From Ruminococcus albus 7 = DSM 20455 (GTDB lineage: Bacteria > Bacillota > Clostridia > Oscillospirales > Ruminococcaceae), in assembly GCF_000179635.2 (NCBI RefSeq), contig NC_014833.1, forward strand, positions 1,650,001 through 1,682,000: a stretch of 32,000 bases of DNA, given 5' to 3'. A program made the position numbers and the translations under genes. This document shows positions 7,808 through 32,000 of this stretch, piece after piece. The stretch's first letter is position 1. The number at the start of each line of letters is the position of its first letter. The notes beneath the pieces are model-generated. The model ran no database searches. It had not been told where the DNA came from and worked only from the letters and a program-made list of their open reading frames with translations.

Positions 7808-7857
7808 TATCCTTTTTATCACAGGATGACATTTATAAAAAGATGAGGAGTAAGATA

Positions 7858-12772: not shown

Positions 12773-12787
12773 TATATTTATAGACCT

Positions 12788-12817: not shown

Positions 12818-12900
12818 ATACTATTATTAGATCACTTTTGTGACTAACTCACTGAAAATAACCATCGCTTGTGTTATCATATACTCAGGAGGGATGTTAT

Positions 12901-13092: not shown

Positions 13093-13670
13093 TGAAAAAG
13101 AAATGGTATGACTATCTCTGGATTTTCTCACTGACGTATCTTTTTCTGGGGTTTTTTAATATCCTCTTTGCATGGCTCGGGCTGATATGCTTCGTGCTTC
13201 CGCTTGTAATATCTATCGGACAGGGAAATAAGGCGTACTGTAATAAATACTGCGGCAGAGGTCAGTTGTTCTCACTATTGGGAGGACGCTTGGGCTTATC
13301 TCGCAAACATGATATGCCAAAATGGATGAAGTCAAAGATCTTTAGATATGGTTTCCTGATATTCTTTTTTGCCATGTTTTTCCTGATGTTATGGAATACC
13401 TATCTTGTTTTTGCAGGTGAAACAACTCTTGCACAGAAAGTCACACTGCTATGGACGTTCAGGCTGCCGTGGCACTGGGCATATCATGGGACCCTTTTTT
13501 CAGACGGCGTTGCACAATTTGCTTTTGGTTTTTACAGTGTTATGCTGACATCCACAGTTCTCGGATTTTTTACGATGATACTGTTTAAACCACGGTCATG
13601 GTGTGTATACTGTCCTATGGGAACAATGACACAGTTGATATGTAAAACTAAACATAAGGAGGTCAGATAA
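13092..13670 (+). CDS. Polytopic membrane protein with Cys motifs (4Fe-4S-binding-domain-like)
   Basis: Its start overlaps the ferredoxin stop (TAATG), with RBS GGGAGG. It has 4-5 hydrophobic helices and the Cys motifs YCNKYCGRGQ and SWCVYCPMGT. Confidence 0.8.
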   Translation: MKKKWYDYLWIFSLTYLFLGFFNILFAWLGLICFVLPLVISIGQGNKAYCNKYCGRGQLFSLLGGRLGLSRKHDMPKWMKSKIFRYGFLIFFFAMFFLMLWNTYLVFAGETTLAQKVTLLWTFRLPWHWAYHGTLFSDGVAQFAFGFYSVMLTSTVLGFFTMILFKPRSWCVYCPMGTMTQLICKTKHKEVR

Positions 13671-15340: not shown

Positions 15341-15343
15341 CTA

Positions 15344-15377
15344 TAAGGACGCATTTCTTTCGTGAGATGCGTCCTTA
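15344..15377 (+). terminator. Hairpin after the redox operon
   Basis: TAAGGACGCA/TGCGTCCTTA is a 10-bp stem with a 14-nt loop. There is no clear U-tract. Confidence 0.45.
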
Positions 15378-15381
15378 AGTG

Positions 15382-15410
15382 TTGAAAAACATACTTTATT
15401 GTGGTATACT
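15382..15410 (+). promoter_or_regulatory. Extended -10 promoter of the Crp/Fnr gene
   Basis: TTGAAA (15382-15387), a 17-nt spacer ending in TGg, then TATACT (15405-15410). Confidence 0.55.
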
Positions 15411-15423
15411 TGATACAATAAAG
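15393..15423. promoter_or_regulatory. Perfect 10-bp inverted repeat overlapping the -10 element and the TSS (candidate operator)
   Basis: ACTTTATTGT (15393-15402) and ACAATAAAGT (15414-15423) are separated by 11 nt. Confidence 0.4.
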
Positions 15424-15440
15424 TATAAGGGGGCATTTCC

Positions 15441-16109
15441 GTGGGATCAACGCAGGAGATACTAAAGACGTTGCTGCCGTTCTGGGACGGTATAGAAGAA
15501 TCTGACCGAAGTTTGATATGCGAAAACACTGTTTCACATTCGTTCACCGCAGGCGAAACCATACACAGAGGACAGGAGTGTTCAGGTGTGATAATCGTTC
15601 GATCCGGCTGTCTGCGGGTGTATATCCTATCTGAAAACGGAAAGGATATCACGCTTTATCGATTGTTCCCGGGGGATATATGTATGCTGTCGGCTTCATG
15701 TGTTCTGGATAGCATTACCTTTGATGTGTCTATAGATGCTGAAGAAAACAGCCGGTGTATCATAATAGGAGGTTCAGTGTTCGATACTCTTTCAAATAAG
15801 TATAAGGATATCCGTATCTTTTCTCTTGAAACCGCTGTCAGCAGGTTTTCGGATGTGATGTGGGTAATGCAGCAGATATTATTTATGAGTATGGATAAGC
15901 GGCTTGCAGTATTTTTGATAGATGAAGCAGCACGTAACAAAACCGATGAGATCATGTTGACCCATGAACAGATCGCCAGATATATCGGTTCTGCCCGTGA
16001 GGTCGTATCAAGAACGCTGAAATATCTGTCATCGGAAGGTCTGGTCGAAGTTTCCAGAAAAGGGATCCGTATCATAGATAAAGCAGGTCTAAGGGAACTG
16101 ACCAATTAA
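15441..16109 (+). CDS. Crp/Fnr-family transcriptional regulator
   Basis: RBS AAGGGGG lies 7 nt before GTG 15441. It has a cNMP-binding-type beta-roll (FTAGETIHRGQECSGVIIVRSGCLRVY...GKDITLYRLFPGDI) and a C-terminal HTH (THEQIARYIGSAREVVSRTLKYLSSEGLVEV). There is no FNR-type N-terminal Cys cluster. Confidence 0.9.
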   Translation: MGSTQEILKTLLPFWDGIEESDRSLICENTVSHSFTAGETIHRGQECSGVIIVRSGCLRVYILSENGKDITLYRLFPGDICMLSASCVLDSITFDVSIDAEENSRCIIIGGSVFDTLSNKYKDIRIFSLETAVSRFSDVMWVMQQILFMSMDKRLAVFLIDEAARNKTDEIMLTHEQIARYIGSAREVVSRTLKYLSSEGLVEVSRKGIRIIDKAGLRELTN

Positions 16110-16210
16110 CGTATAGATATACAGTGGTATGAATAACGGTAGTGACTGTTTTGGCGGCTCAACAGCAGATGATATCAGCCTACCGCACATCGTTTGTTTT
16201 ATACCTAAAA

Positions 16211-16270
16211 AAGAAGAAAGAATAACATTGAATAATATGGTATACCATTTATTCGTTATTCTTTCTTCTT
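16211..16270. terminator. Bidirectional terminator between convergent genes
   Basis: A 16-bp perfect stem AAGAAGAAAGAATAAC/GTTATTCTTTCTTCTT is flanked by an A-run upstream and T-rich sequence downstream. Confidence 0.65.
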
Positions 16271-16306
16271 AGTCTTTTTATTCAGATAAATGAGTTAGTC
16301 TATCTG

Positions 16307-18796
16307 TCAGATAACAGTTACAAGAACTGCATTCCTGATCGCATTTGCAACATCCCATGTGCCGTTGACCTTAGCAGCGATAGCTACCTTGTAGCTCATG
16401 CCGGGTGTAAGGTTCTTAGGAGTTACATATGACAGAGTAGAACCGGAGATAGACTGAGTCTGAACTCTCCATTTGCCTGCCAGATAAACTGCGATACCGT
16501 AGTTCTGAGCATTGGAAACTGCGCTCCATGTAAACTGTATCTGATGATACTGAGCGCTGTAGTTCAATCTGATATTCTGAGGATAAGTATCGCCGTAAGT
16601 CTGCTGAGGATCAGGATCGGGATCTGTATTAGTCTTTTCGGGTCCCTTGATGCCTGTACCTGCTACTGCACCGATAACTTCATCAACGTAGAATGAAGTG
16701 GTAGAGCTGTCTGTCTCAACATAGATCTGAACATTTGATGCGCCATCGGGTATCTTGAAGTTCTTGTTTGCAAGCTGTGTCCACTGACCCTTTGTTACTG
16801 TTTCAGTAGCGATCTTGGTGTAGTTGGTAGTGCCGCTTGCATCGTCATACTGCATTGTGAAATGGAACTTATCGGTAGAAGGACCTTCAAGGTAGTTTAC
16901 TATAGCACTGAAGCTGTATTCTGTACCTGCCTTGAATGCGCGAGTATCAAGTGTATAAGAAGCACCGTTCCAAGCGCTTTCTCTGCCTGATACATACAGT
17001 GAGCTGTTTCCGACGAATGCAGTGTTGGTGCTGGATGCTATGCTTGCAGCACCTCTTGAATTGAAGTTGTCGGTAGAACCTTCAAATCCGTAATTGAAGT
17101 ACCAGCCGTACTGATTGGGCTCAATAGGCTTAACTTCAGCGCCGCCGTTGAACTTGGAACCATCGCCCCACTGGCTGTCGGGGATGATAGAAGTTATGTA
17201 GTTGTATGCGGTCTTGGGCTGATTGTTTCCATCATAAAGCAGAGGCAAGTTTCCGGTTTTGCCTACCCAAGAGTTATTATCGTTAGGACCCCATACCTGA
17301 ACAAGTGTAACCTTACCCTTGTACTTGCCGCTCTTGTTTACGTCAACACAGTGCTGGAAAATAGCCTTATACTTTTCTGCCTGCTGCTGATCAGAATACT
17401 TATAACCGTCACGGGAGATATCAAGCTCAGTTACCTGAACATCGATACCCAGGCTGAGGTAATCATCCATTGCAGCCAGGTATTCCTGAGTTGAACCCCA
17501 AGAATTGTATGCACTGCAATCAATATGTGACTGCATACCCATACCGTCCAGCAGACCCTTGTTGTGCAGAGGAACAAGTATAGTATTCTTTATGCAGTTT
17601 TTCTTATCACGAGCGAACTCATTGTAGTCGTTGTAGTAGAGCTTGCATCCCTTAGGTGCATACTTTCTTGCATAAGTGAATGCCTTTTCAACGAATGAGT
17701 TATTTCCGTAAACTCTTACCCATGCAGAGGAACCGTTCTGTCCGTTAGTTCCGTTGGTAGGACGCAGACCACCGTTATTGGCAGTTCCGTCATATATTAC
17801 CTCGTTACATACATCATAAGCGTAAAGGTTTACAGAAGGATACTGTGTAGCGTAAGCATTGAACATATTCTTGATGTAGCTTTCCATACGCTGATCCATA
17901 GTGTAGGAATTTACATAGCCGTTGTTGTTATTGAATCCCTGCTTGAAGAACCACTCGGGAGTCTGGCTGTGCCATACCAGTGTATGACCACGGAAAGCGA
18001 TATTGTTCTTTGCGCAGAAATCAAGTATAGAAGCGCAGCGGCTGAGAGATACTTTAACATTGGTATCGGAAGAACCGTTCTGAACGATAGTAGCATCGGG
18101 CTTAGTCTCGTTCTCGCACTCGATAGCATTGTGATCTTTGAGCATTATGCCTTTGATAGCGGAATTATTAACTGTATTTCCGTTCAGGATATTACCTACA
18201 CGGAAATAGTCAGCAAACTCATCCTTCAGACCCTTTCCGTAAGGAGCTGCTGCAGCTATAGCAGCTGACTTCTCGGCAGTTACCTTGACATCATCAAAGA
18301 TGAAATCGTCAGTATTATCGTTAGTAAGAGTCAGTTCATATTCGTATGTGTTTTCAGGTGCCTTGTAATCTGCTGTAAGTTCAGCCCACTTGCCGCCCTT
18401 GACTTTCTTTTCGTCAAGAGTTACAACAGTCACTTCATCTGTCTCTTCATCAATGTACTTCAGATCAAGTCTGAATGTGGTATCCTTTTCACTTAATACC
18501 TGCATGGAATAATCGTACTTAACTCCACCGAAAAGGTAAAGTCCCTTTGATGAAGCTGCACCGTCTTCGGTTGAAGTACGTCCTGTGACCTTCATACCTC
18601 TTGAAGAATCATAACCGCCGTTATCAATAGCAGTAAGTTCTATCGAGGTGTCTGTGCCGTGCCAACCATCATAGTTGATCTCAAAACTGTCGTAAACTAC
18701 TTCCTGTGCGTAAACAGGAGCAGTAAACTGTGGCATAGCTGTTGTCAGACAGCTGAGAGCCATCAGTGATGCCAGAATTTTCTTATGCTTCTTCAT
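16307..18796 (-). CDS. Secreted GH10 endo-1,4-beta-xylanase: CBM4_9/CBM22-like, GH10, CBM4_9/CBM22-like, PD-rich linker, FN3-like module; no dockerin
   Basis: The signal peptide is MKKHKKILASLMALSCLTTAMPQFTAPVYA. GH10 signatures are FRGHTLVWHSQTPEWFF, YAYDVCNEV (acid/base Glu) and DVQVTELDIS (nucleophile Glu). Carbohydrate-binding beta-sandwich modules flank the catalytic domain. The linker is DPDPDPQQ. Confidence 0.93.
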   Translation of the reverse strand: MKKHKKILASLMALSCLTTAMPQFTAPVYAQEVVYDSFEINYDGWHGTDTSIELTAIDNGGYDSSRGMKVTGRTSTEDGAASSKGLYLFGGVKYDYSMQVLSEKDTTFRLDLKYIDEETDEVTVVTLDEKKVKGGKWAELTADYKAPENTYEYELTLTNDNTDDFIFDDVKVTAEKSAAIAAAAPYGKGLKDEFADYFRVGNILNGNTVNNSAIKGIMLKDHNAIECENETKPDATIVQNGSSDTNVKVSLSRCASILDFCAKNNIAFRGHTLVWHSQTPEWFFKQGFNNNNGYVNSYTMDQRMESYIKNMFNAYATQYPSVNLYAYDVCNEVIYDGTANNGGLRPTNGTNGQNGSSAWVRVYGNNSFVEKAFTYARKYAPKGCKLYYNDYNEFARDKKNCIKNTILVPLHNKGLLDGMGMQSHIDCSAYNSWGSTQEYLAAMDDYLSLGIDVQVTELDISRDGYKYSDQQQAEKYKAIFQHCVDVNKSGKYKGKVTLVQVWGPNDNNSWVGKTGNLPLLYDGNNQPKTAYNYITSIIPDSQWGDGSKFNGGAEVKPIEPNQYGWYFNYGFEGSTDNFNSRGAASIASSTNTAFVGNSSLYVSGRESAWNGASYTLDTRAFKAGTEYSFSAIVNYLEGPSTDKFHFTMQYDDASGTTNYTKIATETVTKGQWTQLANKNFKIPDGASNVQIYVETDSSTTSFYVDEVIGAVAGTGIKGPEKTNTDPDPDPQQTYGDTYPQNIRLNYSAQYHQIQFTWSAVSNAQNYGIAVYLAGKWRVQTQSISGSTLSYVTPKNLTPGMSYKVAIAAKVNGTWDVANAIRNAVLVTVI
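16310..16585 (-). other. C-terminal FN3-like module, copy B (shared with the LRR protein)
   Basis: YPQNIRLNYSAQYHQIQFTWSAVSNAQNYGIAVYLAGKWRVQTQ...TPKNLTPGMSYKVAIAAKVNGTWDV. An identical 26-nt run TACAAGGTAGCTATCGCTGCTAAGGT occurs in both copies. Confidence 0.6.
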
Positions 18797-18892
18797 AATA
18801 AGAAGCTCATCTCCTTAATAGATCATTTTTGTCGATCGACGTTTGAAAAAATGAATAACCGAAAATAACATATAGTTATTTTTTCTAACTAT

Positions 18893-18922
18893 ATTGTACA
18901 ACAATCGGCATATATATTTCAA
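18893..18922 (-). promoter_or_regulatory. Possible xylanase promoter
   Basis: On the minus strand: TTGAAA, an 18-nt spacer, then TACAAT. Confidence 0.35.
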
Positions 18923-18926
18923 CCTA

Positions 18927-18940
18927 AAATCTGCAGATTT
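18927..18940. promoter_or_regulatory. 14-bp perfect palindrome between divergent promoters
   Basis: AAATCTGCAGATTT. Confidence 0.3.
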
Positions 18941-18963
18941 GGTGAAAAAATGAAGATTATATA

Positions 18964-18991
18964 TTGAATTTTGTAATTAATGTGCTATAAT
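18964..18991 (+). promoter_or_regulatory. Extended -10 promoter of the sensor gene
   Basis: TTGAAT (18964-18969), a 16-nt spacer ending in TGc, then TATAAT (18986-18991). Confidence 0.55.
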
Positions 18992-19064
18992 AAGAATTAG
19001 TAATCAATTATATGCGTATTACATGACCGCTAATTAAAACCGATCACATATCAAGGAGTTGAAC

Positions 19065-20789
19065 ATGAGTAATGATCATCGTCCGCTCATAGGCGTGATA
19101 ACAGCCCGGGCATCACAGAGTGAACAGCGGCAGCTGCTCAAAGGCATACTTTCAAAAGCTGATGAGCTTGGCATAGATATCGCTGTATTTTCAAATGTAT
19201 ATAACTTCGTGGAGTATTTTGCAGACGTTGAGGTGGAAAACAAGATCTATGAGCTTGTCCGCTCAGAACGCCTTGACGGAGTGATAATCACATCTGAGTC
19301 ACTTATCTTTCCCAATCTGCAAGAAAGAATATATGAACATATAAAAGGTCTTGATATACCTATCGTGATAACCGATGCTGAGGTAGAGGGATACACCTGT
19401 ATAAATACTGATGTCAGGAGCGATCTTATGAATATCGCCCGTCATCTTACGGATGTACACGGGATAAAGGATATAGATATCATAACAGGTCCCGAGGAGT
19501 TTGAAACTTCCCGTCTGCGTGTTGAAGGTGTCAGGAAGATCATGGAGGAGCGGGGATTGCCGTTTGGCGATGAGAATATTATATATGGCAATTTCTGGAA
19601 TAACACAGGTGAAGATCTTGCGGAGGAATACCTGAGCGGAAACCGCAGACTTCCTCAGGCTGTGATATGTGCCAATGATTATATGGCATTCGGACTGCTG
19701 GATAAATTGTTAGATCATGATCTGAATATACCTGAGGATCTTACTGTTATAGGGTATGAGCATATCGGTGAAAGGATATATCACTCTCCCGTACTGACCA
19801 CCTATCAGCGCAACCGCGCAGCTATAGGCGCAAAAGCAGTAGCGATGATATATTCAAAGCTTACAGAGGCGCCTATGGAAGATATAAGTATTTCGGGCTG
19901 CATGATCTGCGGTGATACCTGCTCGTGCGGGGTAGAGAAAAGATATCTCCGAGACGAACTGGTTGAGATAAGACAGATGAAACTGTATAACGATCTGAAT
20001 TTCTTTGGCAACTTTGAACAGCAGTCTGTTACCTGCCGCTCTATATCCGACTATATACGCACCCTTCAGGATTTCTCCTACCTGATAAGAAATGTTTCGG
20101 GAATATACCTTTGTCTTCATGAGGATTGGTGTTCACGGTCGCACAAGTCCTCTGTAAAAGAGTATTCAAACAATGAACCTATGATATGCTACCGTATCAT
20201 CAGTCCCGAATACGGTTCCGACGATCCTGCGGTTTTTACAAGGGGTCAGCTTTTTCCTGCAGAACTTACGGGCGCAGGGGATAAAAAGTTTCTTTTCTTT
20301 GCACCGTTGTTTTCAGAGGGCAAGGAGTTTGGGCATTTTATTTTTCAGTACACCACACCGGGCTCATATGATCCTGTAATGATAGAATGGCTCAAAATTA
20401 CTGTAAATGCACTTCAGGTGCTTCGTATGAAAAACGATATAAACACCCTCCTTGAATGCACTAATCTGTCAGAGTATCACGATACAGCTACAGGTCTGTA
20501 CAACAAACAGGGTTTTATAAATGAGCTTGACAACGCCTGCAAAAAGCTGAACGATAAGGAAAAGCTTCCTCTTATTATGATACGCACAGGTATCTTTTCC
20601 GATGATAGCCGTATCGATAAGAAAAATCTCTCCGTAAGGCTTGATGTTGAGATCGCAGAATGTCTTAACCGTATTGCTGCTGATATCAATGGTTTCTGCG
20701 GAAAGCTTTCTGATAAGCAGTATATCCTTACGACAGTAGGCATAAAGAAGTTTTCAGACAACCATTGTAAGACAGGTACAGCAAGCTAA
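19065..20789 (+). CDS. Cytoplasmic LacI/PBP1-type sugar-binding-domain protein without an HTH, an unknown middle domain, and a degenerate, C-terminally short GGDEF-like domain
   Basis: RBS AAGGAG precedes ATG 19065. The N-terminal PBP1 pattern is IGVITARASQSE...AVICANDYMAFGLLDKL...DLTVIGYE. The GGDEF-domain entry is HDTATGLYNKQGF, but the signature position reads LSDKQY and the ORF ends about 21 aa later. Confidence 0.8.
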   Translation: MSNDHRPLIGVITARASQSEQRQLLKGILSKADELGIDIAVFSNVYNFVEYFADVEVENKIYELVRSERLDGVIITSESLIFPNLQERIYEHIKGLDIPIVITDAEVEGYTCINTDVRSDLMNIARHLTDVHGIKDIDIITGPEEFETSRLRVEGVRKIMEERGLPFGDENIIYGNFWNNTGEDLAEEYLSGNRRLPQAVICANDYMAFGLLDKLLDHDLNIPEDLTVIGYEHIGERIYHSPVLTTYQRNRAAIGAKAVAMIYSKLTEAPMEDISISGCMICGDTCSCGVEKRYLRDELVEIRQMKLYNDLNFFGNFEQQSVTCRSISDYIRTLQDFSYLIRNVSGIYLCLHEDWCSRSHKSSVKEYSNNEPMICYRIISPEYGSDDPAVFTRGQLFPAELTGAGDKKFLFFAPLFSEGKEFGHFIFQYTTPGSYDPVMIEWLKITVNALQVLRMKNDINTLLECTNLSEYHDTATGLYNKQGFINELDNACKKLNDKEKLPLIMIRTGIFSDDSRIDKKNLSVRLDVEIAECLNRIAADINGFCGKLSDKQYILTTVGIKKFSDNHCKTGTAS

Positions 20790-20814: not shown

Positions 20815-21054
20815 ATGATTGATATGATTTACAACCTCCGTGTGGGCGATATTCACGCCGCTGAGTTCTCTGACGAGTGGAGCAAGCTCTGCATTCCGTT
20901 TGAAAACTCTCTGAGTGAGGCGCAGATTGAAGTGTTCCACAAGATACTCGATTGCGTAAGCGAAACTTCCGCTGCTGAGATGAGAGCAGTTTACAAGGCA
21001 GACTTCAAGGTGAGAGAACTTAATTGTATGATTTCAGATTTTTTGGGGGATTAA
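20815..21054 (+). CDS. Hypothetical small helical protein (79 aa from ATG 20815)
   Basis: The ORF has a weak RBS (AAAGGG). It resembles, from memory only, small proteins carried on Firmicute mobile elements (pattern ..G.I...E......W.KL......LSEAQ.E.F). Confidence 0.5.
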   Translation: MIDMIYNLRVGDIHAAEFSDEWSKLCIPFENSLSEAQIEVFHKILDCVSETSAAEMRAVYKADFKVRELNCMISDFLGD

Positions 21055-21304: not shown

Positions 21305-24300
21305 GTGAGTGAGAGTATGGATTATAGAAAGAATTGGAAGAAACGAAGTGTTTCAGTTGCATTGAGCGCAGCAATGCTAACAAACATGGCGGCTGTTATC
21401 CCAACGGCAGCAATTGAAGAATTCAAGAAAAATAATGAGATAATTCAATCTCTGAAGAAGCAGGCAGCACATGAAGAGGCTTTTGACTACGCTCTTATCA
21501 CAGGGAATGCTGATACGACTCTTGAAATGAATGCTCAGAAGATCGACATAACAGGTGATGTGCATTCAAACAGCAATTTTATCTACCGAGGATCGGAGAT
21601 CGTTATCAACGGAGCTTGTGAAGCATCAAAAAATACAACAATTAGTGTTTCCGATAGTGAGTATCTTGACAAGATATATTCCGTTGATGATGATACAGAA
21701 CTTGTTTCAGTTCCTGACTATGCGGAAGAAATTCATGCGCATTTGCTTGAGCAAAATGTTCCCGAGTATTACGATTGGACGAGTTTTAGTGACCGCTATG
21801 TTGATATAAGCAACGGAATATGCGTAGATGGAACGTTAGGCGTTTACTCAAGCCAGTTCACAGGAAACGGCATTATTTATGCAAAGAACAGCATAAACTA
21901 TTCAGTTGGTGAAATCAGCAGTGCGGATGGCGGTATGGTCGTACTTTGTGCCGCAAACGGAGATATAAACATTTATGCCTCAAACACCACTATCAATGGT
22001 ATCATCTATGCTCCGCACGGAACAGTGACTATTACAGGGCAGAATGTCACGATAAACGGCAGGATAATAAGCGACAAGTTTAATTTCTGGGGTTCAAACC
22101 TTACCATTAATAAAGGCGAAGGTGATCTGGATCTTTTGGATTTTCTTTTCCTTCCGGCTCCCGAAATATCAAGCGATGGAGAATTCAAGGAGAACAGAAA
22201 AGTAACTTTCGATATTTCTCAGACAGAAAAAATCGATAAAGTTGCAAAAGAAGAAACAGTGTGGACTTTCTCCAAAGTTGATGGCGAAACCAAAACAGAA
22301 GCTGTTCAAGGAGAAGATTATGTCATTGATGAAAGTTCGTCTGACGGATTCATCAAAAACATGATCTTCAAAAAATATGGTACTTATGAAGTTTCGGTCA
22401 CTGTGAGATCCGGTGATTCGGAAAAGACAGGTTTGCAAACTATTGAAGTCATCCCGGATGTTGCTCCTATTGTTGATTTCACGTTAGACAATGATTATTA
22501 TTATCGTGACCCCGAGAATGGCAGCAAAGCCTCAATTCCCCTTAAGGACCATTCATATTCTGTAGACAATGATGAGATAGGTCAGCGTATATGGACTGTT
22601 TATTATGATGCTGATAATAACGGAGTTTTCGATGAATCTGAGGGAGAGATCATAAGTGATTCTAATGAGAGCGAACTGACTTATACAACTGGGAAGGTAG
22701 GCAAATACAAGGTAGAACTTACGTCTGTAGAAACGTTCAGTGATACTATCCCGAGCCTTATAACACAAGATGATTACAGACGTGCTGATACCGGCGATAA
22801 ATCTATTGAAAGCAAGACTTTTACAGTAGGAAACATTGCTCCCGAAGCAAGTGTTGATGTGGGGCTTGCAAAAGATGTTGACCTTGTTTTCACAGTCGGC
22901 TCGGCAGATGTAGAAAAGATACAGCTTTATGCCGATAGGATAGAGCAGATAAAGGCAGAACTTAAAGAACAAGGCTACAATGTATATCTGTCAACAGTTT
23001 CCACTTCAAGTCTTACGGCAAAAGATACATTTGCGTGGGACGAATATGACCATTATGATTATCAGGATTGGTATAACATTAAAAGACCAAAACATATAAT
23101 CTATGACGAGGACAATATTCAGATGGTAGGATATTGTTGGCAGGCATTGCGTGACTTTCTTTATGTTGAAGATAAAAATGAATCACAGAAAATATTCACT
23201 TTTGACATTCAGCGTGATAAGACCGACTGGCACAGCATGGAAGGCGGCGGTTTTCTTTTCAATACTTCTATAGAAGATGGAGTTATCAAAGGTTTTTATG
23301 TGCTTATAACATGCTCCGGACTTCAACTTTCTCAGATAAAAGGGGTAAGTGTAGAGGACTTCCAAAACGGAAAGAGAAATTCTATAACCGCTTTAAAAAC
23401 TTTCAAACTTGACAACCTGTACGATGAGCATAACATCAAGATAGTTGTTGATAAAAAGTCATTGTCAGTATGGGACGGAGAGAAACTCGTTATTGACAGC
23501 TACTCTCTTCCCGAAAATGATTATGGATATGGTTATGGACCGATAACCTCTCATGCAAGTCACGGCTGCACTCAGCAATCTTACTTTACTTTTGCTAATA
23601 TAAAAATGCAGACCATATCCGGTGAAAAGCTCTCCGATGTTTTGGCAAACTATGATTGGAAGAGCAAAACAAGCCGATATGTTATAAATCTGAGTGATTC
23701 CGAGCTTGATGAATTTGAAACCGATGAGGAGCTTGCTGCTGTTTCAAAGCAGATACTTGAAAACGAGCTGAACTTCATAGGTATAGGAAATGGTGAAAAC
23801 AGCGCTCAGTATACAGATATTATAAATTCGGCTGCGGGAAGCGGTATATATCTTGATGCTGAGGATACTGATAACTCTCCCGAAAACCTTTCAAATTATG
23901 TGGTAAGCAATGAGAATTCAAAGAATTTCTCAGTAGATTATTATGTTGCAAAAGATCAGCCTATCAGATATATCGATTCGTACAAGGATCATGAGAAAGA
24001 CCCTATGTACTCTGAAAGTTGGGAATACGAGTACGACCCGTCTGTATTCTATAATGAGTCCGGCAGTACCGAGGTCAAAAAATTCTCTTCCGATAAAGCA
24101 ATAACTGTTTTTGAAGAGGCAGGCGCATATACTATGCGTCTAAAGGTAAGAGACAATCCGGTCGGCGATAATGACTCATTGGATGAGTACAGATTATGGT
24201 CAGGCGAAAAGTCTTATGAAAAAGTTCTGATGGTCCATAACAGACCTGTTGCGGAACTTACCGTGAATGTATCGGAAAACCCGAATGACAAAAATACGGT

Positions 24301-27300
24301 GATAATCAACACACAGGATAATTGTTATGATAAGGATCATATTTCTGATGCAGATAAAGGGATCGTATCCAAATCATATAAATGGAAAAAACTCTATGAT
24401 GCAGAATGGACAGACGGTCCTATCCCTAACAAGGTAGAGATCGGCGGTATTTATATTATCTGCCTTACAACGGTTGACAAAGAAGGTCAGATAAGCTATC
24501 CGAATATTCAGATAATCAATACAGCAGATTTCCTTGTTCCGGAAGAGGCGGAAGATAAAGAGCCGCCTGTTATCGAGCTTGAACTTGAAAAAACTAAAGC
24601 GAATGCGGGCGAGAGTGTAAAGATCACTGCGTATGCTTCGGATAACATAGGTGTCGATACCTTTGAACTCTACATTGACGGAGAGCGTGTCCTTGACCAT
24701 GCAGGCAGAATTTTCTACACGGGTGATAAAACCGAAACAGTAGAGATAAAAGCAATTGCAGTAGATATTAACGGTAATCGCTCTGAAGAAACACAGCAGT
24801 TAACGATCGTTGACAATAGAGATAAGACCGCTCCTACAGTAGAGATAGAATCTCCCGAAGACAGAGCGATAATGGATTTCTCTGTTCAGTTTGTTGGCTC
24901 GGCTTATGATGACACTCTGCTCAAAAATTATAGGTTGGAATACAGAAGACAGGGTGCAGGCAGCTTTAACATTATCGCCGAATCAGATCATGAAGTAAAA
25001 AGCGGAATACTCGGCGAATGGAATGTCGAGGGGCTTGAATCGGGAATTTATGAGGTCAAGTTGTCGGCAGAGGACGGTGCAGGAAACTCCTCATATGTTA
25101 TCTATCAATATGAACTGAAGCCGAATAAAGAGAGCGGTATTGTAGATACTGAAACCGTTGACCATGAAGCTCCTGTCATCATTCTGACATCTTCTAAAGA
25201 TAAAGCAGATGTTGGTGAAGAAGTTAAGGTGACAGTTGATGTAAAGGACGAATCCAAAATAGATGCGATCCAAGTCTACATTGACGATGAACTTATTATG
25301 GACGGTTCTGGAAAGATAACGTTCAGCAGAGGTGAGCCGGTAGTTTCCAAAATAAAGGTTTACGCTTCCGATGAATTTGGAAATATATCTGTAAAGGAAC
25401 TTTCTGTAATATTCGTTGATGACAGCGACTACGATCCGCCTGTTACCAAAATAGACACACCAGAGCATGCAAGCACCATAAGCGGCAGCGTTGATATTAC
25501 AGGAACAGCAGCTGATGAAACGGAATTATTAAGGTATAGGCTGGAGTATAAGGCTCAGAACGAAGAATCTTATACAGTCTTTGCCGAAATGTATAATCAG
25601 GTCGAAAACGGCACGCTCGGAACATTCAACACTTCTGCACTTGCAGACGGTGTGTATGATATTCGCCTGACAGCAGAAGATAAGAGCGGTAATTCCTCAT
25701 ATGTTCAGTACTCTTACATTGTAGACAACAGTGAAAATAACAATAATAACGATGAGGATACTATCAAGCCTGTCATAGATCTGGTACTCACTAAGACCGA
25801 AGCTGATATAGGCGAGGAAGTGACGGGTATCGTTTCTGTGACCGATAATAAGAAGCTTGAAGCAGTAAAGGTATATCTTGATGACGAGATCATACTTACA
25901 AGCAGCGGCAGCTTTACATTTACCAGAGGAAAAGCCGCAGCTGCAAAAATAAAAGTATATGCTGTTGACAGTGCCGGGAATATGGCAACAGAAACTGCGG
26001 AATGCGTATTTATTGATAACAGTGATAAAAAAGCACCTACTGCAAAAATAAGCTCCCCCAAGCACGCAAGTGAGGTCAGCGGAAAGGTCGATATCAAGGG
26101 TACGGCAAAGGACGATGAGGAACTTTTAAGATATACTCTCGGCTACAGACTTTCCGGAACAGACGATGTCATCATTTTGGCTGAAAAGACCGAAGCTGTG
26201 GATAATGATATTCTCGGCATACTTAATACCGAAAAGCTTGTAAACGGCGTGTATGACATTGTTCTTACAGTTGAGGATAAGGGCGGCAATAAAACTGTAG
26301 CCCAAATCTCATATATTGTAAATAATGAACAAGAGGGAACAGGTCTTATTGAAACTGATGACGACAAGGACATTATCGACCCTGTAATAAAACTTGCATT
26401 GTCAAAGAATGTTGCGGGGATCGATGATAAAGTAAAGGCAAGCTTTACCGTTACAGATAATAAGAAAGTAAGTTCGATAAAAGTATATGTTGACGGTAAG
26501 GAAACAGAATATAAGAATAATCAAGTTGAATTCACTTCAAATAAAGTCGGAAAAATAGAAGTGAAGGTCGTTGCTGTTGACAGCAGCGGAAATAAGGCAG
26601 AGAAAAAAGCGGTTTGCAGTTTCTATAATTTGAGTGATAACACTCCGCCCGAATTGGATATAGTTTCTCCCGAATATTACGAAACAGTAGAAAAGCCGAC
26701 TGACATTATCGGTTCTGTCTATGATGAGACCGAGCTTGCCTATTATAAAGTCGAGTATCGTCCCAAGGGAGCAGAAAAGTACACAACACTTAATAAGAGT
26801 ACCGAAGAAAAACATAATGAATCCTTGGCTTACTTCGATACTACGGTTTTGGCAAACGGCATTTACGAGTTTAAGGTGATAGCTGAGGACTTTGGCGGCA
26901 ACACTACAACTTGTGAATTCCAATATGTAGTTGACGGAACACTTAAAGTCGGGAATACAAACCTCGGATTTGAAGATGTTAATACCAAAATATCCGGCAT
27001 AGGAGTTTCGGTCGCAAGATACTACAGCAGTTCAAACAAGCTGTCGGGCGATTTCGGCATGGGCTGGACACTCGGTCTTGGCGGTATAAGACTGTACGAA
27101 ATGAGCAGTATTGCAGAAGGTTGGGAACAGCAGTATGATCGTCAGATTGGCAATTTCTTAAGCACTGTTTATACTGTCAGTGAATTAGTTTCACACGATG
27201 TTGTAATAACATACGGAGACGGAACTTGTGAACGGTTCAAAGTGAAATTAGACCCTGCAAGTCACTCTTTTGTTCCGCTGCAAAACACTTCAATAAAATT

Positions 27301-30300
27301 TGAAAGCCCGACAGGGTCAAAGAATAAGCTTGAAGTTTACGGTAAGAATAAAGTTTATTTGGATGGTTACTTAGGCGAAACAGAACTTCTGGATTATAAT
27401 ACCGATAAATTCGTGGTGCAGAAATACAAGCTGACTCTTGAAGATGAAACAGAAGTCATCATCGACAGGGATAAGGGTGTTGAGAGCATAACGGATAAAT
27501 TCGGTAACACCATAAAAGTAACCGAGAACGGCTATACAGACCCTAATGGTGTAGGCTTGACATTTGAACGTGATCCACATGGAAGACTCACCTCTGTGAC
27601 TGAGCCTGACGGAAAGACAACTAAGTATACTTATGATGAGAACGATGATCTTATCAAAGTGACAGATCCTATGGGGTATTCTGTAAGCTACGTCTATGAC
27701 AGCGAACATAACCTCATAAGCATGATCGACTCCAGAGGTGTTGAAGCCGCTCACAATGAGTATGATGAAAGCGGACGTTTAGTTGCTACAGTAGATGCTA
27801 ACGGAAACAGAATGACTTATGAGCATGATGTTGACGGAAGAACAGAAATTGTAACAGATAAGCTTGGAAATAAAAGTGTCTATGTTTACGATGATAAGGG
27901 CAACGTCCTGAAATGCACCGATGCAAACGGCAACACCACATATGCAGAATATGATAAATACGGTCACATAAAGAGCAGTACCGATGCTCTCGGAAATGTT
28001 ACGCAGTATCAGATGACCGCAACAGGTGAAGTGCTGTCATTAACAAACGCTGTAGGAAATACGGTAACAAACAGCTACAATGATAAGAAGCAGCTTACAT
28101 CTGTAACGGCAATGGGCGTTACTCAGATGATCGTAAATTATGATGAGGATGGTTTGCTCACAAGTACAAAGGACGCTATGGGCAACGGCACTTATTATGA
28201 TTATGACAGTTCCTATCGTATAAAGGGTATCTCGGACGAGATCGGCTCTTTCATCAATTTCACATATGACAGTAAAGGAAATGTAATTTCATCTACTGAT
28301 GGGGCAGGTGAAACTGCAACATTTACATACGATGATTCGGATAATTGCATAAGCAAAACAGTTGTAAAGACCACGGAGAAAGGCTCAGAAAATATTACCG
28401 AAAACTATGAATATGATGCTATGAACAGACTTGTAAAGGTTATTTATGCCGATGGTTCTGTTACAAGCGTGTCATATGACGGAAACGGTAATATGACGTC
28501 CGCTGTAGACGAAAAAGGCAGAAAAACATCGTATGTGTATGACAACAACTGCAATCTTGTAAAGATAACCTACTGCGACAATACGAGTGAAACATTCGGA
28601 TATGATGCAGAGGGCAGAAATACTACAGCAACGGACAGAATGGGCAGAACAATCACCATGACCTATGACAAGGTCGGAAATCTGCTCACAAAAACTTATC
28701 CTAATGGGATATCCGAGAACTACAGTTACGATGCAAAATACAGATTGACGTCTGTTACAGATGTTAATGGCGGTACGACATCATATGAGTATGATGAGAT
28801 CGACAGAAACACGGCAATAGTTGATGCACTCGGAAACAGAACCGAGTTTGCTTACAATTCAAGCTCTATGCTTTCTTCTATGACAGATTCGAAAGGTGAT
28901 GTGTGGAAGTATGAATATGATGCAAACGGAAACAGAACTAAGGTGATAATGCCGGACGGCACAAGCATCTCTTCCGAATATGATGCAAGAGGCAGAGTTA
29001 CCAAGCAGACAGACCAAAACGGCTATTCCACAAGTTACGCTTATGACGGTGCTGACAGGCTTGTATCTGTAACAGATGCAGTCGGCAGCAAGTGGGTGTA
29101 TACTTACAGCGAAGTAGGCGAGCTCACTTCTGTAACAGACGCAAACGGAAATACAACGTCATATGAATATGACAATATGGGCAGAGTTGTCAAGACCACA
29201 AATGCGGCGGGCAAGACAGCTGAATGCACATATGATGACAGCGGAAATGTTCTTACATCGACTGACTATTCCGGCACGACAACGACTTATACTTATGACA
29301 GCCTTGACAGATTGATCAAGCAGGATATTGACGGAGAAGTTACCGAATTTGCTTACACAAGCGGAGGACTTCTTTCCTCGGTGACCGACAGCACCGGAAC
29401 TATCAGTTATACCTATAACAATACCGATGGGTTGAGTAAGGTCAAGCTGGCAGATGGTACAGAGATAAAGTACAGCTATTATAAGTCCGGTAATCTTAAA
29501 ACTGTATCTACGGCTTACGGCGATACTACCTTCGGCTATGACAAGATGGACAGGCTGACAAGGGTCGTTGACAAAAACGGTGTAGCTACGCTTTATGAGT
29601 ACGATGCCAACGGAAACAGGACTGCTGTAAAATATGCAAACGGAATAACCACGACTTTTGCCTACAATGACGTAAATCAGCTTATCAGTGAAAAAACAGT
29701 TGACAAAGACAACAATGTTGTAGTACAATATATTTATACGTTAGGCAAAGCAGGCGAACGACTGAAAGTTACCGAACCCGATAAGGTGACAGAGTACGGC
29801 TATGACGAACTCTACAGGCTGACATCGGAAAAGGTTACAAAGGACAAGAAAACTACCACAACTACTTACACCTACGATAATGTAGGAAATCGTCTGACTA
29901 AGACCGAAAACGGTACTACTAACAAGTACAAGTACAATTCGCTGAATCAGCTTGTTTCGGAGAGCGGTGTTACAAACAGCTATGATGACAACGGCAATCT
30001 GATAAAGCAGGTTGAGAACGGCAAGACCACGACCTATACCTTTGACAAGCAGAACAGGCTCGTCAGAGCAACCATTTCGAGCGGTCAGAATGTTACGGTC
30101 GAGGAGTATAGGTACGATTACGCAGGCAACAGAACTGCAAAAATAACCGAGGGCGAAACTACCAATTATGTAGTTGATACCAACAGTGCGCTTGCTCAGG
30201 TCCTTTATGAAACTGACGGCACGGGCAGCTTGAAAACCTATTACACCAGAGGCAGTGAGCTTATTAGCTTACAGCGTGAGCACGAAGAACGCTACTATTT

Positions 30301-31822
30301 GTATGACGGTCACGGCAATGTCAGAAGACTTACCGACGAGGACGGTGCTGTAACCGATACCTACGATTATGATGCGTTTGGAAACCTTACAGAGCATACG
30401 GGCGAGACCGAGAACAGCTATCTCTATTGCGGTGAACAGTATGATGCAAATACAGGTTTCTACTATCTCCGTGCAAGATATATGAACCCGTCAACGGGGA
30501 CATTTATCTCGATGGACAGCTATCAAGGCTCGATGTTTGATCCTGTAAGTCTGCATAAGTATCTGTATGCTAATGCGAATCCGGTGATGAATTGCGACCC
30601 GACAGGTTATTTCACGATTGGGGAATGTGATGTCAGTGCAGCTATTCAAGGTGTTCTGGATAAGCTGATTACTCCTAAACTTATTCAGGTATTTAATCGT
30701 ATCAACGATCTTGCCACTATTTATGAAACAGGTAAGCAAGTTGTAATGATCTTGACAGACCCTGATATGTCTGCATGGGATGTTGTGTTTGCCCTTGGTC
30801 GTGGTGTTATCACAGGTTTGTTCATTAACCATATGTGTGCTATGAAACGCATTGGACCTATCATAAGTAAAATTATGGTTGGTTACGGTCTTGTGTCACA
30901 ATGGGAAAGCATAATGGATGCCGCCAAAGACGGAGATTGGGATTTAGTTGCAACTCGTTCTATACAGTTTGTGGTTCAGCTTATCACAATGCACCAAAAC
31001 TGCTTTACCGGGGATACTCTGGTTGCGGCAGAGGACGGACAGATACGCATTGACGAAATTAAAGTCGGCGATAAGGTTTGGGCATATAATGTTGAAACCG
31101 GAGAAACCGAGCTTAAAGGAGTTAAGCAAGTCTACATTCACGAAACAGATGAGCTTTTACACCTATACACTTCTGTTGGTGCAATAGATACTACTTCTAA
31201 TCACCCATTTTACGTGCTTGGAGAAGGCTGGGTTGCCGCAGGTGACTTGGCTGTCGGCGATGAGATCTACTCTCTTGACGGAACGATTGGTATTGTCACC
31301 GGTTCTCAGTTTGAAAAGCTTGATGTGCCTATCAAGGTTTATAATCTTGAAGTTGCTGACTTCAATACATACTTTGTCGGCGATAATGCGGTTTTGGTGC
31401 ATAATTATTCTGATGGTGCAGATACAATGCACTATCCTAAGAAGGCACAAGATATCGATTTACGTGGTACAGGAACCAACTATCGTGATGCATTAGATAT
31501 CGCATTTGAACAGACTGGTTATCCAAAAGAACAGTTTATGGTTTCAAAGTGGGCAAGAGATATAAATGGTAAGTCTATACCAGTGGAATACATGGGACCG
31601 AATGGTTCATATGTTGACATAGATATAGCTCATTTGTCAAGTTTTGATAGAAATGGTAATTGGGCTACTGGACCAGATGTGCCACATGTAGGTTGGCAAA
31701 CTGGAAGAAGCAATAAAACAACAGGTCATATTTTACTTGATGATGTTCCAACAGGAAGAGATTATTGCTATTCTGATTTATCATCGCAAATCGCCAAAAT
31801 ATTAAAGCAATTCGGTTTATAA
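21305..31822 (+). CDS. Giant secreted RHS/YD-repeat polymorphic toxin (about 3,500 aa)
   Basis: The ORF is uninterrupted for 10.5 kb. The likely start is ATG 21317 (RBS AGGAAGTGAG) and the signal-like N-terminus is KKRSVSVALSAAMLTNMAAVIPTAA. Dozens of YD repeats are present (YxYDxxGNxxxxxD). The RHS core ends in YYLRARYMNPSTGTFISMDSY...HKYLYANANPVMNCDPTGY, followed by a HINT domain and a C-terminal extension. Confidence 0.95.
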   Translation: MSESMDYRKNWKKRSVSVALSAAMLTNMAAVIPTAAIEEFKKNNEIIQSLKKQAAHEEAFDYALITGNADTTLEMNAQKIDITGDVHSNSNFIYRGSEIVINGACEASKNTTISVSDSEYLDKIYSVDDDTELVSVPDYAEEIHAHLLEQNVPEYYDWTSFSDRYVDISNGICVDGTLGVYSSQFTGNGIIYAKNSINYSVGEISSADGGMVVLCAANGDINIYASNTTINGIIYAPHGTVTITGQNVTINGRIISDKFNFWGSNLTINKGEGDLDLLDFLFLPAPEISSDGEFKENRKVTFDISQTEKIDKVAKEETVWTFSKVDGETKTEAVQGEDYVIDESSSDGFIKNMIFKKYGTYEVSVTVRSGDSEKTGLQTIEVIPDVAPIVDFTLDNDYYYRDPENGSKASIPLKDHSYSVDNDEIGQRIWTVYYDADNNGVFDESEGEIISDSNESELTYTTGKVGKYKVELTSVETFSDTIPSLITQDDYRRADTGDKSIESKTFTVGNIAPEASVDVGLAKDVDLVFTVGSADVEKIQLYADRIEQIKAELKEQGYNVYLSTVSTSSLTAKDTFAWDEYDHYDYQDWYNIKRPKHIIYDEDNIQMVGYCWQALRDFLYVEDKNESQKIFTFDIQRDKTDWHSMEGGGFLFNTSIEDGVIKGFYVLITCSGLQLSQIKGVSVEDFQNGKRNSITALKTFKLDNLYDEHNIKIVVDKKSLSVWDGEKLVIDSYSLPENDYGYGYGPITSHASHGCTQQSYFTFANIKMQTISGEKLSDVLANYDWKSKTSRYVINLSDSELDEFETDEELAAVSKQILENELNFIGIGNGENSAQYTDIINSAAGSGIYLDAEDTDNSPENLSNYVVSNENSKNFSVDYYVAKDQPIRYIDSYKDHEKDPMYSESWEYEYDPSVFYNESGSTEVKKFSSDKAITVFEEAGAYTMRLKVRDNPVGDNDSLDEYRLWSGEKSYEKVLMVHNRPVAELTVNVSENPNDKNTVIINTQDNCYDKDHISDADKGIVSKSYKWKKLYDAEWTDGPIPNKVEIGGIYIICLTTVDKEGQISYPNIQIINTADFLVPEEAEDKEPPVIELELEKTKANAGESVKITAYASDNIGVDTFELYIDGERVLDHAGRIFYTGDKTETVEIKAIAVDINGNRSEETQQLTIVDNRDKTAPTVEIESPEDRAIMDFSVQFVGSAYDDTLLKNYRLEYRRQGAGSFNIIAESDHEVKSGILGEWNVEGLESGIYEVKLSAEDGAGNSSYVIYQYELKPNKESGIVDTETVDHEAPVIILTSSKDKADVGEEVKVTVDVKDESKIDAIQVYIDDELIMDGSGKITFSRGEPVVSKIKVYASDEFGNISVKELSVIFVDDSDYDPPVTKIDTPEHASTISGSVDITGTAADETELLRYRLEYKAQNEESYTVFAEMYNQVENGTLGTFNTSALADGVYDIRLTAEDKSGNSSYVQYSYIVDNSENNNNNDEDTIKPVIDLVLTKTEADIGEEVTGIVSVTDNKKLEAVKVYLDDEIILTSSGSFTFTRGKAAAAKIKVYAVDSAGNMATETAECVFIDNSDKKAPTAKISSPKHASEVSGKVDIKGTAKDDEELLRYTLGYRLSGTDDVIILAEKTEAVDNDILGILNTEKLVNGVYDIVLTVEDKGGNKTVAQISYIVNNEQEGTGLIETDDDKDIIDPVIKLALSKNVAGIDDKVKASFTVTDNKKVSSIKVYVDGKETEYKNNQVEFTSNKVGKIEVKVVAVDSSGNKAEKKAVCSFYNLSDNTPPELDIVSPEYYETVEKPTDIIGSVYDETELAYYKVEYRPKGAEKYTTLNKSTEEKHNESLAYFDTTVLANGIYEFKVIAEDFGGNTTTCEFQYVVDGTLKVGNTNLGFEDVNTKISGIGVSVARYYSSSNKLSGDFGMGWTLGLGGIRLYEMSSIAEGWEQQYDRQIGNFLSTVYTVSELVSHDVVITYGDGTCERFKVKLDPASHSFVPLQNTSIKFESPTGSKNKLEVYGKNKVYLDGYLGETELLDYNTDKFVVQKYKLTLEDETEVIIDRDKGVESITDKFGNTIKVTENGYTDPNGVGLTFERDPHGRLTSVTEPDGKTTKYTYDENDDLIKVTDPMGYSVSYVYDSEHNLISMIDSRGVEAAHNEYDESGRLVATVDANGNRMTYEHDVDGRTEIVTDKLGNKSVYVYDDKGNVLKCTDANGNTTYAEYDKYGHIKSSTDALGNVTQYQMTATGEVLSLTNAVGNTVTNSYNDKKQLTSVTAMGVTQMIVNYDEDGLLTSTKDAMGNGTYYDYDSSYRIKGISDEIGSFINFTYDSKGNVISSTDGAGETATFTYDDSDNCISKTVVKTTEKGSENITENYEYDAMNRLVKVIYADGSVTSVSYDGNGNMTSAVDEKGRKTSYVYDNNCNLVKITYCDNTSETFGYDAEGRNTTATDRMGRTITMTYDKVGNLLTKTYPNGISENYSYDAKYRLTSVTDVNGGTTSYEYDEIDRNTAIVDALGNRTEFAYNSSSMLSSMTDSKGDVWKYEYDANGNRTKVIMPDGTSISSEYDARGRVTKQTDQNGYSTSYAYDGADRLVSVTDAVGSKWVYTYSEVGELTSVTDANGNTTSYEYDNMGRVVKTTNAAGKTAECTYDDSGNVLTSTDYSGTTTTYTYDSLDRLIKQDIDGEVTEFAYTSGGLLSSVTDSTGTISYTYNNTDGLSKVKLADGTEIKYSYYKSGNLKTVSTAYGDTTFGYDKMDRLTRVVDKNGVATLYEYDANGNRTAVKYANGITTTFAYNDVNQLISEKTVDKDNNVVVQYIYTLGKAGERLKVTEPDKVTEYGYDELYRLTSEKVTKDKKTTTTTYTYDNVGNRLTKTENGTTNKYKYNSLNQLVSESGVTNSYDDNGNLIKQVENGKTTTYTFDKQNRLVRATISSGQNVTVEEYRYDYAGNRTAKITEGETTNYVVDTNSALAQVLYETDGTGSLKTYYTRGSELISLQREHEERYYLYDGHGNVRRLTDEDGAVTDTYDYDAFGNLTEHTGETENSYLYCGEQYDANTGFYYLRARYMNPSTGTFISMDSYQGSMFDPVSLHKYLYANANPVMNCDPTGYFTIGECDVSAAIQGVLDKLITPKLIQVFNRINDLATIYETGKQVVMILTDPDMSAWDVVFALGRGVITGLFINHMCAMKRIGPIISKIMVGYGLVSQWESIMDAAKDGDWDLVATRSIQFVVQLITMHQNCFTGDTLVAAEDGQIRIDEIKVGDKVWAYNVETGETELKGVKQVYIHETDELLHLYTSVGAIDTTSNHPFYVLGEGWVAAGDLAVGDEIYSLDGTIGIVTGSQFEKLDVPIKVYNLEVADFNTYFVGDNAVLVHNYSDGADTMHYPKKAQDIDLRGTGTNYRDALDIAFEQTGYPKEQFMVSKWARDINGKSIPVEYMGPNGSYVDIDIAHLSSFDRNGNWATGPDVPHVGWQTGRSNKTTGHILLDDVPTGRDYCYSDLSSQIAKILKQFGL
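24563..26937 (+). repeat. Four tandem in-frame coding repeats of about 199-204 aa, each two beta-sandwich (Ig/FN3-like) units
   Basis: Repeat starts are at 24563 (PPVIELELEK), 25169 (APVIILTSSK), 25766 (KPVIDLVLTK) and 26378 (DPVIKLALSK). Each contains ..V.V.A.D..GN.. then P.V.I.SP......G.V.I.G.A.D...L..Y.LEY...G......A......G.LG..NT..L.NG.Y...L.A.D..GN. The copies are diverged, not recent duplicates. Confidence 0.85.
26950..30610 (+). other. RHS shell: N-terminal plug-like segment, YD repeats and the RHS-associated core ending at DPTGY
   Basis: The segment starts with ARYYSSSNKLSGDFGMGWTLG. YD repeats run from about 27500. The DPTGY motif is at 30596-30610. Confidence 0.9.
31001..31405 (+). 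other. HINT (pre-toxin HINT-like) autoprocessing domain
   Basis: CFTGDTLVAAEDGQIRIDEIKVGDKVWAYN...TSNHPFYV...GWVAAGDLAVGDEIY...VYNLEVADFNTYFVGDNAVLVHN spans 135 aa. It begins with Cys, ends in HN, and is followed by Tyr, which is not a splice nucleophile. Confidence 0.8.
31406..31819 (+). other. C-terminal 138-aa putative toxin domain, family not recognised
   Basis: Its position after the RHS core and HINT domain points to a toxin role. The sequence is YSDGADTMHYPKKAQDIDLRGTGTNYRDALDIAFEQTGYPKEQFMVSKWARDINGKSIPVEYMGPNGSYVDIDIAHLSSFDRNGNWATGPDVPHVGWQTGRSNKTTGHILLDDVPTGRDY.., and I cannot match it to any known toxin motif. Confidence 0.55.
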
Positions 31823-31835
31823 GGGAGTGCTATTA

Positions 31836-32000
31836 ATGATTGAAGATTTAATAGAATATTGTGTTAAAGGTGATATTAGCTATCGAATTATATCAAACGA
31901 TGAGAAAGAAAAGATTAAAGGTTATATAAATGAACGATATCTTGATAAAAATAGAAAAAGTGGACGTACACTTTTCGACCATTTAAAAATCAGCGAAAGT
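31836..32000 (+). CDS. Candidate cognate immunity protein, N-terminal 55 codons; the 3' end lies outside the window
   Basis: RBS AAGGGAG (31821-31827) overlaps the toxin stop. ATG 31836 lies 13 nt after the stop. The frame is open to the window end (MIEDLIEYCVKGDISYRIISNDEKEKIKGYINERYLDKNRKSGRTLFDHLKISES). It has no signal peptide. Confidence 0.5.
   Translation, partial: MIEDLIEYCVKGDISYRIISNDEKEKIKGYINERYLDKNRKSGRTLFDHLKISES

Follow-up and report, generated by a model that had tools for sequence, protein, structure and literature searches.

What kind of domain closes the giant RHS protein that is encoded at the end of a 32,000-nucleotide stretch of Ruminococcus albus 7 = DSM 20455 (NCBI RefSeq assembly GCF_000179635.2, contig NC_014833.1, positions 1,650,001 to 1,682,000; hereafter the window)? 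The segment in question, at window positions 31406-31822, is the 3' end of a single plus-strand open reading frame (138 codons plus TAA). An initial annotation, made from the letters of the sequence, had placed a 138-residue C-terminal domain here after an RHS core and a HINT domain, had predicted from this position that it is a toxin, and had assigned it to no recognisable toxin family. Coordinates and domain order were confirmed in our analysis and the toxin prediction held, the domain being a member of the bacterial toxin family Ntox47; the statement that no family could be recognised was overturned by the same result. We consider with good confidence that the domain is the Ntox47 toxin at the C-terminus of an RHS/YD polymorphic toxin of the Gram-positive type, which is presumably secreted via Sec, and that it is most likely RNA-cutting and paired with an immunity protein.

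Assignment of the C-terminal domain to Ntox47

The sole Pfam-A match to the domain was PF15540 (Ntox47, "Bacterial toxin 47"). Hmmscan scored it at 89.8 bits (E=1.9e-25), where the gathering cut-off is 25, and aligned residues 10-116 of the domain to positions 5-118 of the 120 in the profile. Relatives retrieved from the protein database (13, then 193) were nearly all pre-annotated with PF15540, many homologues carry the NCBI name 'polymorphic toxin type 47 domain-containing protein', and PF15540 was matched by every one of the 115 homologues that were aligned. An exhaustive HMMER search, which spanned 1.84 billion cluster representatives, gave 297 representative homologues at E<=1e-3, of which 222 remained at E<=1e-10. 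In 225 of 230 members the Ntox47 domain ends no more than five residues short of the C-terminus, with RHS, PT-HINT and PT-TG occurring as partner domains. One member (P0264) bears the name 'filamentous hemagglutinin' in its source record, and another (P0223, 565 amino acids) is the only one seen with Ntox47 near the N-terminus (residues 55-160). A protein identical to the one encoded in the window is recorded in NCBI assembly GCA_000621285.1 (contig JHYT01000043.1), and its precomputed public annotation already includes PF15540.

No HNH/AHH, deaminase, ADP-ribosyltransferase (ART), barnase or EndoU family was matched on the domain by Pfam at E<=10, in agreement with the absence of such signatures in the initial annotation, and no NCBIfam model matched the toxin domain. 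Weak Pfam matches to Jag_N were obtained in 29 of the 115 Ntox47 domains (best E=3e-4) and are assumed to lie in the segment of helix, strand and strand at about residues 26-63; Jag_N was rejected as the family, this likeness being judged a generic helix-strand-strand resemblance.

Ntox47 was catalogued by Zhang et al. in 2012 as a predicted RNase toxin of the BECR fold, with Salmonella rhs2 as its type, that occurs with RHS repeats and HINT proteases and is exported via the type II, type VI or type VII secretion system (T2SS, T6SS or T7SS), and its published conserved positions are D, [HRK], RT, E, D, PH, H, [DE] and R (PMC3482391). In the numbering of the 138-residue domain this signature maps to D18, R20, Q36-T37, E61, D73, P93-H94, H108, D112 and R118, and eight of the nine positions are present, the exception being Gln36. 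Conservation was counted in the alignment of 115 Ntox47 homologues; in addition to the positions listed in Table 1, Asp16 is conserved in 98 of 101 sequences, T37 in 108 of 115 and G38 in 110 of 115. The strings DIDIAHLSS and PHVGWQTGRSNKTTGHILLDD, in which candidate catalytic residues had been noted earlier, are both present in the translation, and among the residues of these stretches are D73, P93-H94, H108 and D112, all invariant or nearly so; His76 of DIDIAH (77/115) and Asp113, by contrast, are not conserved, so that the earlier selection stands only in part. Much the same applies to the suggestion of a new nuclease or RNase-type effector, since RNase activity is the published prediction for the family while newness fails, the family having been defined in 2012.

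Most members of the family end at Arg118, column occupancy dropping from 114 to 61 at position 119 and to 37 or fewer beyond it, so that the window domain is longer than most. The loop between the conserved Asp and His has a 12-residue insertion in the window protein (residues 77-88), and many proteobacterial members carry this insertion too, although in another form. The loop insertion, the C-terminal extension, Gln36 and an immunity sub-clade described below are subfamily variations rather than signs of a new kind of toxin. Judged by its sequence, the domain is an ordinary, uncharacterised Ntox47 member in the known RHS-HINT-toxin-immunity arrangement.

The toxin gene, its immunity-type partner and cassette structure

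On the giant protein Pfam recognised RHS repeats in 18 stretches, Ig-like domains at residues ~1240-1750 (among them Big_7 and DUF4625), PT-HINT and Ntox47, and the domain order is RHS repeats, Rhs core, PT-HINT and, last, Ntox47 (Table 1). The first ~1200 residues of the protein (window 21317-25000) had no Pfam or NCBIfam match. The RHS core terminates in NPVMNCDPTGY at 30578-30610, with DPTGY itself at 30596-30610, and this core end reads as a Rhs C-terminal cleavage motif of the PxxxxDPxG(L/Y) type. The linker between the core and the HINT domain (30611-31000) is spanned by no Pfam family; it holds hydrophobic stretches, e.g. VVFALGRGVITGLFINHMCAM and ISKIMVGYGLV, and might act as a pretoxin module or in translocation. 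Within the HINT domain three motifs could be read from the sequence, namely Cys1 (CFTGD), a TxxH block (TTSNH) and the terminal HN (VLVHN, 31391-31405), and residue 1 of the toxin, a Tyr, comes directly after VLVHN, the last residue of which is Asn3363.

Table 1. Coordinates of the toxin gene, its domains and motifs, and the genes that follow it (window positions; residue numbers are those of the 138-residue domain; fractions are conservation counts).
Feature	Position	Strand	Remarks
Giant polymorphic toxin gene	21317..31822	+	3501 amino acids from the ATG called in public records; mechanical open reading frame from GTG 21305
Signal-peptide-like N-terminus MDYRKNWKKRSVSVALSAAMLTNMAAVIPTAA	21317..21412	+	Putative; recognised by reading the translation
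RHS repeat-associated core domain	30368..30610	+	TIGR03696, E=1.3e-16
130-amino-acid linker, Rhs core to HINT	30611..31000	+	Helical-looking, partly hydrophobic
Pretoxin HINT domain	31001..31405	+	PF07591, E=4e-28
Ntox47 toxin domain, 138 amino acids	31406..31819	+	Pfam-matched core, residues 10-116, at 31433-31753
D18-L-R20 of the DxDLRG motif (signature D and [HRK])	31457..31465	+	D18 100/106, R20 107/109
K56-S-I-P-V-E61	31571..31588	+	Lys56 115/115; signature Glu61 112/115
Asp73, invariant, proposed catalytic Asp	31622..31624	+	115/115; ends strand 69-73
Pro93-His94 (PH signature), His94 proposed catalytic	31682..31687	+	P93 105/115, H94 113/115
His108, Asp112, Arg118 (GHIxxDxVPxxR signature)	31727..31759	+	112/114, 113/114, 109/114
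20-amino-acid C-terminal extension	31760..31819	+	Strand 121-124, helix 126-135; closest relatives only
Shine-Dalgarno-like GGGAG	31823..31827	+	8 nucleotides before the downstream ATG; read from the sequence
Immunity-type gene, 5' part (55 codons)	31836..32000	+	Gene cut by the window end
Orphan cassette 1: HINT + Tox-ART-HYD1 (261 amino acids), then a 135-amino-acid gene	Beyond window base 32000		
Orphan cassette 2: HINT fragment with weak Ntox24 match (143 amino acids); 155-amino-acid gene ~0.8 kb later	Beyond window base 32000		

An immunity-type open reading frame starts 14 nucleotides past the toxin stop, and its complete protein in the source contig (L039:18520-18975) has 151 amino acids; a partner gene in this position had been anticipated by the initial annotation, and the comparison of loci bore this out. 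A locus scan limited to one genome per species yielded 36 Ntox47 loci, in hosts that include Ruminococcus, Lachnospiraceae, Bacilli, Brevibacillus, Paenibacillus, Vibrio, Moraxella, Chryseobacterium, Campylobacter and Verrucomicrobia, among others. When two metagenome loci were added, a downstream open reading frame was present at 37 loci, and iterated HMMER searches placed 35 of these frames in a single family, to which the complete window immunity protein aligned with an hhalign probability of 99.9. The window immunity protein is also 65% identical to the 148-amino-acid product encoded after P0001, a toxin that is 70% identical to the one in the window.

Pfam DUF6756 was matched by 11 of the 35 downstream genes (best E=4.8e-10), and the window immunity protein aligned to it over residues 6-134 (profile 13-153 of 160) with E=0.0019 and 18.5 bits, under the cut-off of 27. 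No function is described for DUF6756, and the literature searched contained no mention of it; the 2012 catalogue, for its part, gives no immunity family for Ntox47 (PMC3482391). Within the downstream-gene family the window immunity protein belongs to an 'LFD...YNHS' sub-clade, apart from the majority 'GHLSI...NWY' clade. An Ntox47 toxin with an immunity gene was also seen on a 1.9-kb contig (L006:484-1374) binned to a metagenome-assembled genome (MAG) of a ruminal Methanobrevibacter; this archaeal pair is most likely a binning artefact, although it may instead reflect gene transfer.

The proportion of guanine and cytosine (GC) falls stepwise across 31006-32000, the HINT domain having 0.44, the toxin 0.37 and the immunity gene 0.27-0.31, which fits a toxin/immunity module that was acquired separately from the RHS body. 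Past the window end, two orphan cassettes come after the immunity gene (L039:18520-22188, where a window position is the L039 position plus 13316). A 258-nucleotide repeat of the HINT 3' end is present in three copies, the first of which stops no more than two bases from where the toxin begins while the other two lie in the downstream orphan cassettes, and a 44-nucleotide intergenic repeat follows two of the immunity genes. Taken together, the repeats and the GC pattern have the appearance of classic toxin-tip replacement, presumably by recombination in the conserved pretoxin segment. The closest full-length relative was found in a sheep-rumen Ruminococcus MAG (L003), with 69% identity. On a metagenome contig (L001:3-1834) the P0001 toxin is an orphan cassette following the end of a HINT-AHH nuclease toxin, and its frame opens with unrelated residues, joined to the final ~30 residues of a HINT domain.

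Predicted structure, proposed mechanism and competing explanations

The AlphaFold2 model of the toxin domain, built with the 115-sequence alignment as input, had a pLDDT (predicted local distance difference test) of 93.6 and a pTM (predicted template modelling score) of 0.87. The modelled elements are a helix at residues 26-37, strands at 45-51, 57-63, 69-73, 94-98 and 106-110, a further strand at 121-124 and a helix at 126-135. Asp73 closes strand 69-73 and His94 opens strand 94-98, with a 20-residue loop (74-93) between them. A 2026 preprint places Ntox47 within a 'BECR-like' superfamily, leaving homology to the true BECR RNases undecided, and describes for this superfamily a helix followed by the equivalents of strand 3 and strand 4, with an extended loop between these and catalytic residues at the strand ends (bioRxiv 10.64898/2026.08.28.747851). 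Structure searches that start from BECR-like proteins fall short of canonical BECR RNases (10.64898/2026.08.28.747851). The order of elements in our model and the placement of D73 and H94 fit the BECR-like description, and no BECR protein was listed by Foldseek.

The structure search that the initial annotation had proposed as a check recovered no relative of the model in the PDB or BFVD; it was Pfam that supplied the family. Foldseek matches to the PDB were at chance level (best E=0.2, TM <0.2, mostly antibody domains), with 807 matches at E<=10, of which the best 50 were listed, and none reaching E<=0.001. Those to BFVD were likewise at chance level, and searches of the PDB by sequence, whether made with the domain alone or with the profiles of the toxin and immunity families, returned nothing meaningful. 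Kinship to the BECR RNases is therefore without independent confirmation from the Foldseek searches and the sequence and profile searches of the PDB.

RHS, WapA and HINT systems supply the general background for Sec export, for release at the Rhs core or by HINT, and for entry into the target cell. Following this background, the giant protein would be exported by virtue of its signal-peptide-like N-terminus, with the C-terminal region carried by the RHS shell. The toxin would then be freed by autoproteolysis at the DPTGY of the Rhs core, by the pretoxin HINT domain, or by both, as the motifs suggest; in the case of HINT, the terminal His-Asn directly before toxin residue 1 would allow release via cyclisation of the Asn. 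Once freed, the 138-residue domain is expected to enter a neighbouring bacterium and halt its growth, and the most likely way is cleavage of an RNA that serves in translation, e.g. tRNA. Asp73 and His94 form the likely active site, with His108, Asp112, Arg118, Glu61 and Lys56 as candidate neighbours in sequence conservation. The producer would be protected by the small protein encoded immediately downstream, to judge from the strict linkage of the two genes.

The mechanism can be compared with work on Salmonella Rhs2 and SciX. Rhs2 is severely toxic in E. coli, where growth is rescued by SciX, and its toxicity is abolished by D192A and by H204A (bioRxiv 10.64898/2026.05.10.723254). Inactive Rhs2 variants co-purify with EF-Tu and stay bound to it on gel filtration, and the authors propose tRNA cleavage, active protein not having been obtained for assay (10.64898/2026.05.10.723254). 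In Ntox47 members with the short loop, the invariant Asp and the His of 'PH' are 12 residues apart (e.g. D207 and H219 of P0155), which is the spacing of D192 and H204 in Rhs2; from this we infer that D192 corresponds to D73 and H204 to H94.

Several points weigh against this reading of the domain as an immunity-paired, RNA-cutting toxin of a secreted protein. RNase activity is a prediction for every member of the Ntox47 family, Rhs2 included (10.64898/2026.05.10.723254). Most of the 115 homologues have Arg (54) or Lys (43) at position 36, whereas the window protein has Gln. It is motifs alone that suggest secretion, HINT release and uptake by the target cell, and it is only conservation together with the spacing in short-loop members that suggests the equivalence with D192 and H204 of Rhs2.

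The first of these points leads to the alternative that the domain is an Ntox47 toxin but not an RNase, acting instead by binding or modifying EF-Tu, as a DNase or as another hydrolase. In its favour, RNase chemistry is known for the family as a prediction, Rhs2 and EF-Tu co-purify stably, neither an RNase nor any other solved fold resembled the model among the Foldseek matches listed, and the later classification goes no further than 'BECR-like', with true-BECR homology left undecided. Against this, the conserved set of Asp, His, Arg, Lys and Glu suits acid-base cleavage of a phosphodiester, and the EF-Tu-binding toxins of contact-dependent inhibition (CDI) that are cited in the Rhs2 preprint are tRNases guided by EF-Tu, so that we regard a toxin of other chemistry as unlikely. 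We give a similarly low likelihood to the more specific proposal that Ntox47 is a structurally isolated class of enzyme which attacks translation via EF-Tu in a new way, and that the Clostridial subgroup differs in its range of substrates or targets from the T6SS members of the Proteobacteria. The enlarged Asp-His loop, the extra C-terminal strand and helix and the separate immunity sub-clade are what suggest such a difference in target range.

A decayed, non-toxic remnant or an inactive structural tail is highly improbable. Truncated orphan cassettes are known in polymorphic toxin loci, several of the database matches are fragments, and two orphan cassettes lie downstream at this very locus; nonetheless, the explanation was rejected because the frame is intact through 3501 codons and the signature residues are kept except at Q36, a position that is also the only departure from the near-invariant residues of the family. 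The confident, compact model and the intact immunity-type gene with its ribosome-binding site speak against decay as well. Least probable of all, and to be discounted almost entirely, is the first proposal, in which the toxin domain would represent a family that is new and unclassified: the lack of an NCBIfam match, of a PDB sequence match and of a Foldseek neighbour would agree with it, but it is refuted by the full-length PF15540 match far over the cut-off, and the published signature positions, the name given by NCBI to the homologues and the Ntox47 annotation that the protein itself already bears all contradict it.

Surroundings of the locus and comparison with known systems

Just upstream of the toxin gene, the public record has a 79-amino-acid gene at window positions 20815-21054 (L039:7499-7738), for which no significant family match was found (DUF6809, E=0.03). 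The region at 1999-20789 includes a ricin-lectin protein, a BspA-type leucine-rich repeat protein, a dockerin-bearing S8 subtilase (1311 amino acids), a CoA-disulfide-reductase-like protein with a rhodanese domain, a Crp-family regulator, a glycoside hydrolase family 10 (GH10) xylanase with CBM4_9 modules on the minus strand, and a protein with a LacI-type periplasmic-binding domain. The gene content of the window is typical of the genome of a fibre-degrading member of the Clostridia.

The value of the locus as a discovery is small, since the domain, the architecture and the role as a toxin were catalogued in 2012 and the domain is already annotated on the protein; the chemistry and the target, moreover, are questions for the Ntox47 family as a whole and not special to the window. 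What the locus does illustrate is that RHS toxins of the Sec type can reach a very large size in rumen-type Clostridia and are equipped there with exchangeable HINT-toxin/immunity cassettes. One immunity family, partly covered by DUF6756, accompanies Ntox47 across phyla and addresses a field that was blank in the 2012 catalogue. Given the confident model, the Gram-positive toxin and its 151-amino-acid partner could offer an alternative to Salmonella Rhs2 for biochemistry and structure determination.

The nearest known system is Rhs2 (Rhs-orphan) with SciX of Salmonella Typhimurium, in which a toxin of the same PF15540 family likewise stands C-terminal after RHS elements and a small immunity gene lies immediately downstream. 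The two differ in that the window toxin is borne on a 3501-amino-acid Sec-type Gram-positive RHS protein with a pretoxin HINT domain, whereas Rhs2 is a T6SS-linked truncated Rhs; compared with Rhs2 and typical Ntox47 domains, the window toxin is further distinguished by the 12-residue insertion in the Asp-His loop, by the 20-residue extension that is rare in the family and by Gln36. The E. coli pair CdiA-CT/CdiI (PDB 5T86) and the EF-Tu-dependent BECR CDI tRNases share the plan of a contact-delivered C-terminal toxin followed by an immunity gene. However, the window toxin has no detectable sequence or profile similarity to CdiA-CT/CdiI of 5T86, which was absent among the Foldseek matches listed (best 50 of 807), and CDI delivery proceeds through type V CdiB/CdiA, a different system.

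In general design the window protein is similar to WapA of Bacillus subtilis, a Sec-exported, wall-associated Gram-positive YD/RHS protein with variable C-terminal tRNase domains, whose gene is adjacent to that for the immunity protein WapI and which acts in competition between strains. The toxin domains of WapA belong to families other than Ntox47, and WapA is not known to have a pretoxin HINT domain. The window protein, in comparison with WapA, is much larger and carries additional Ig-like domains.

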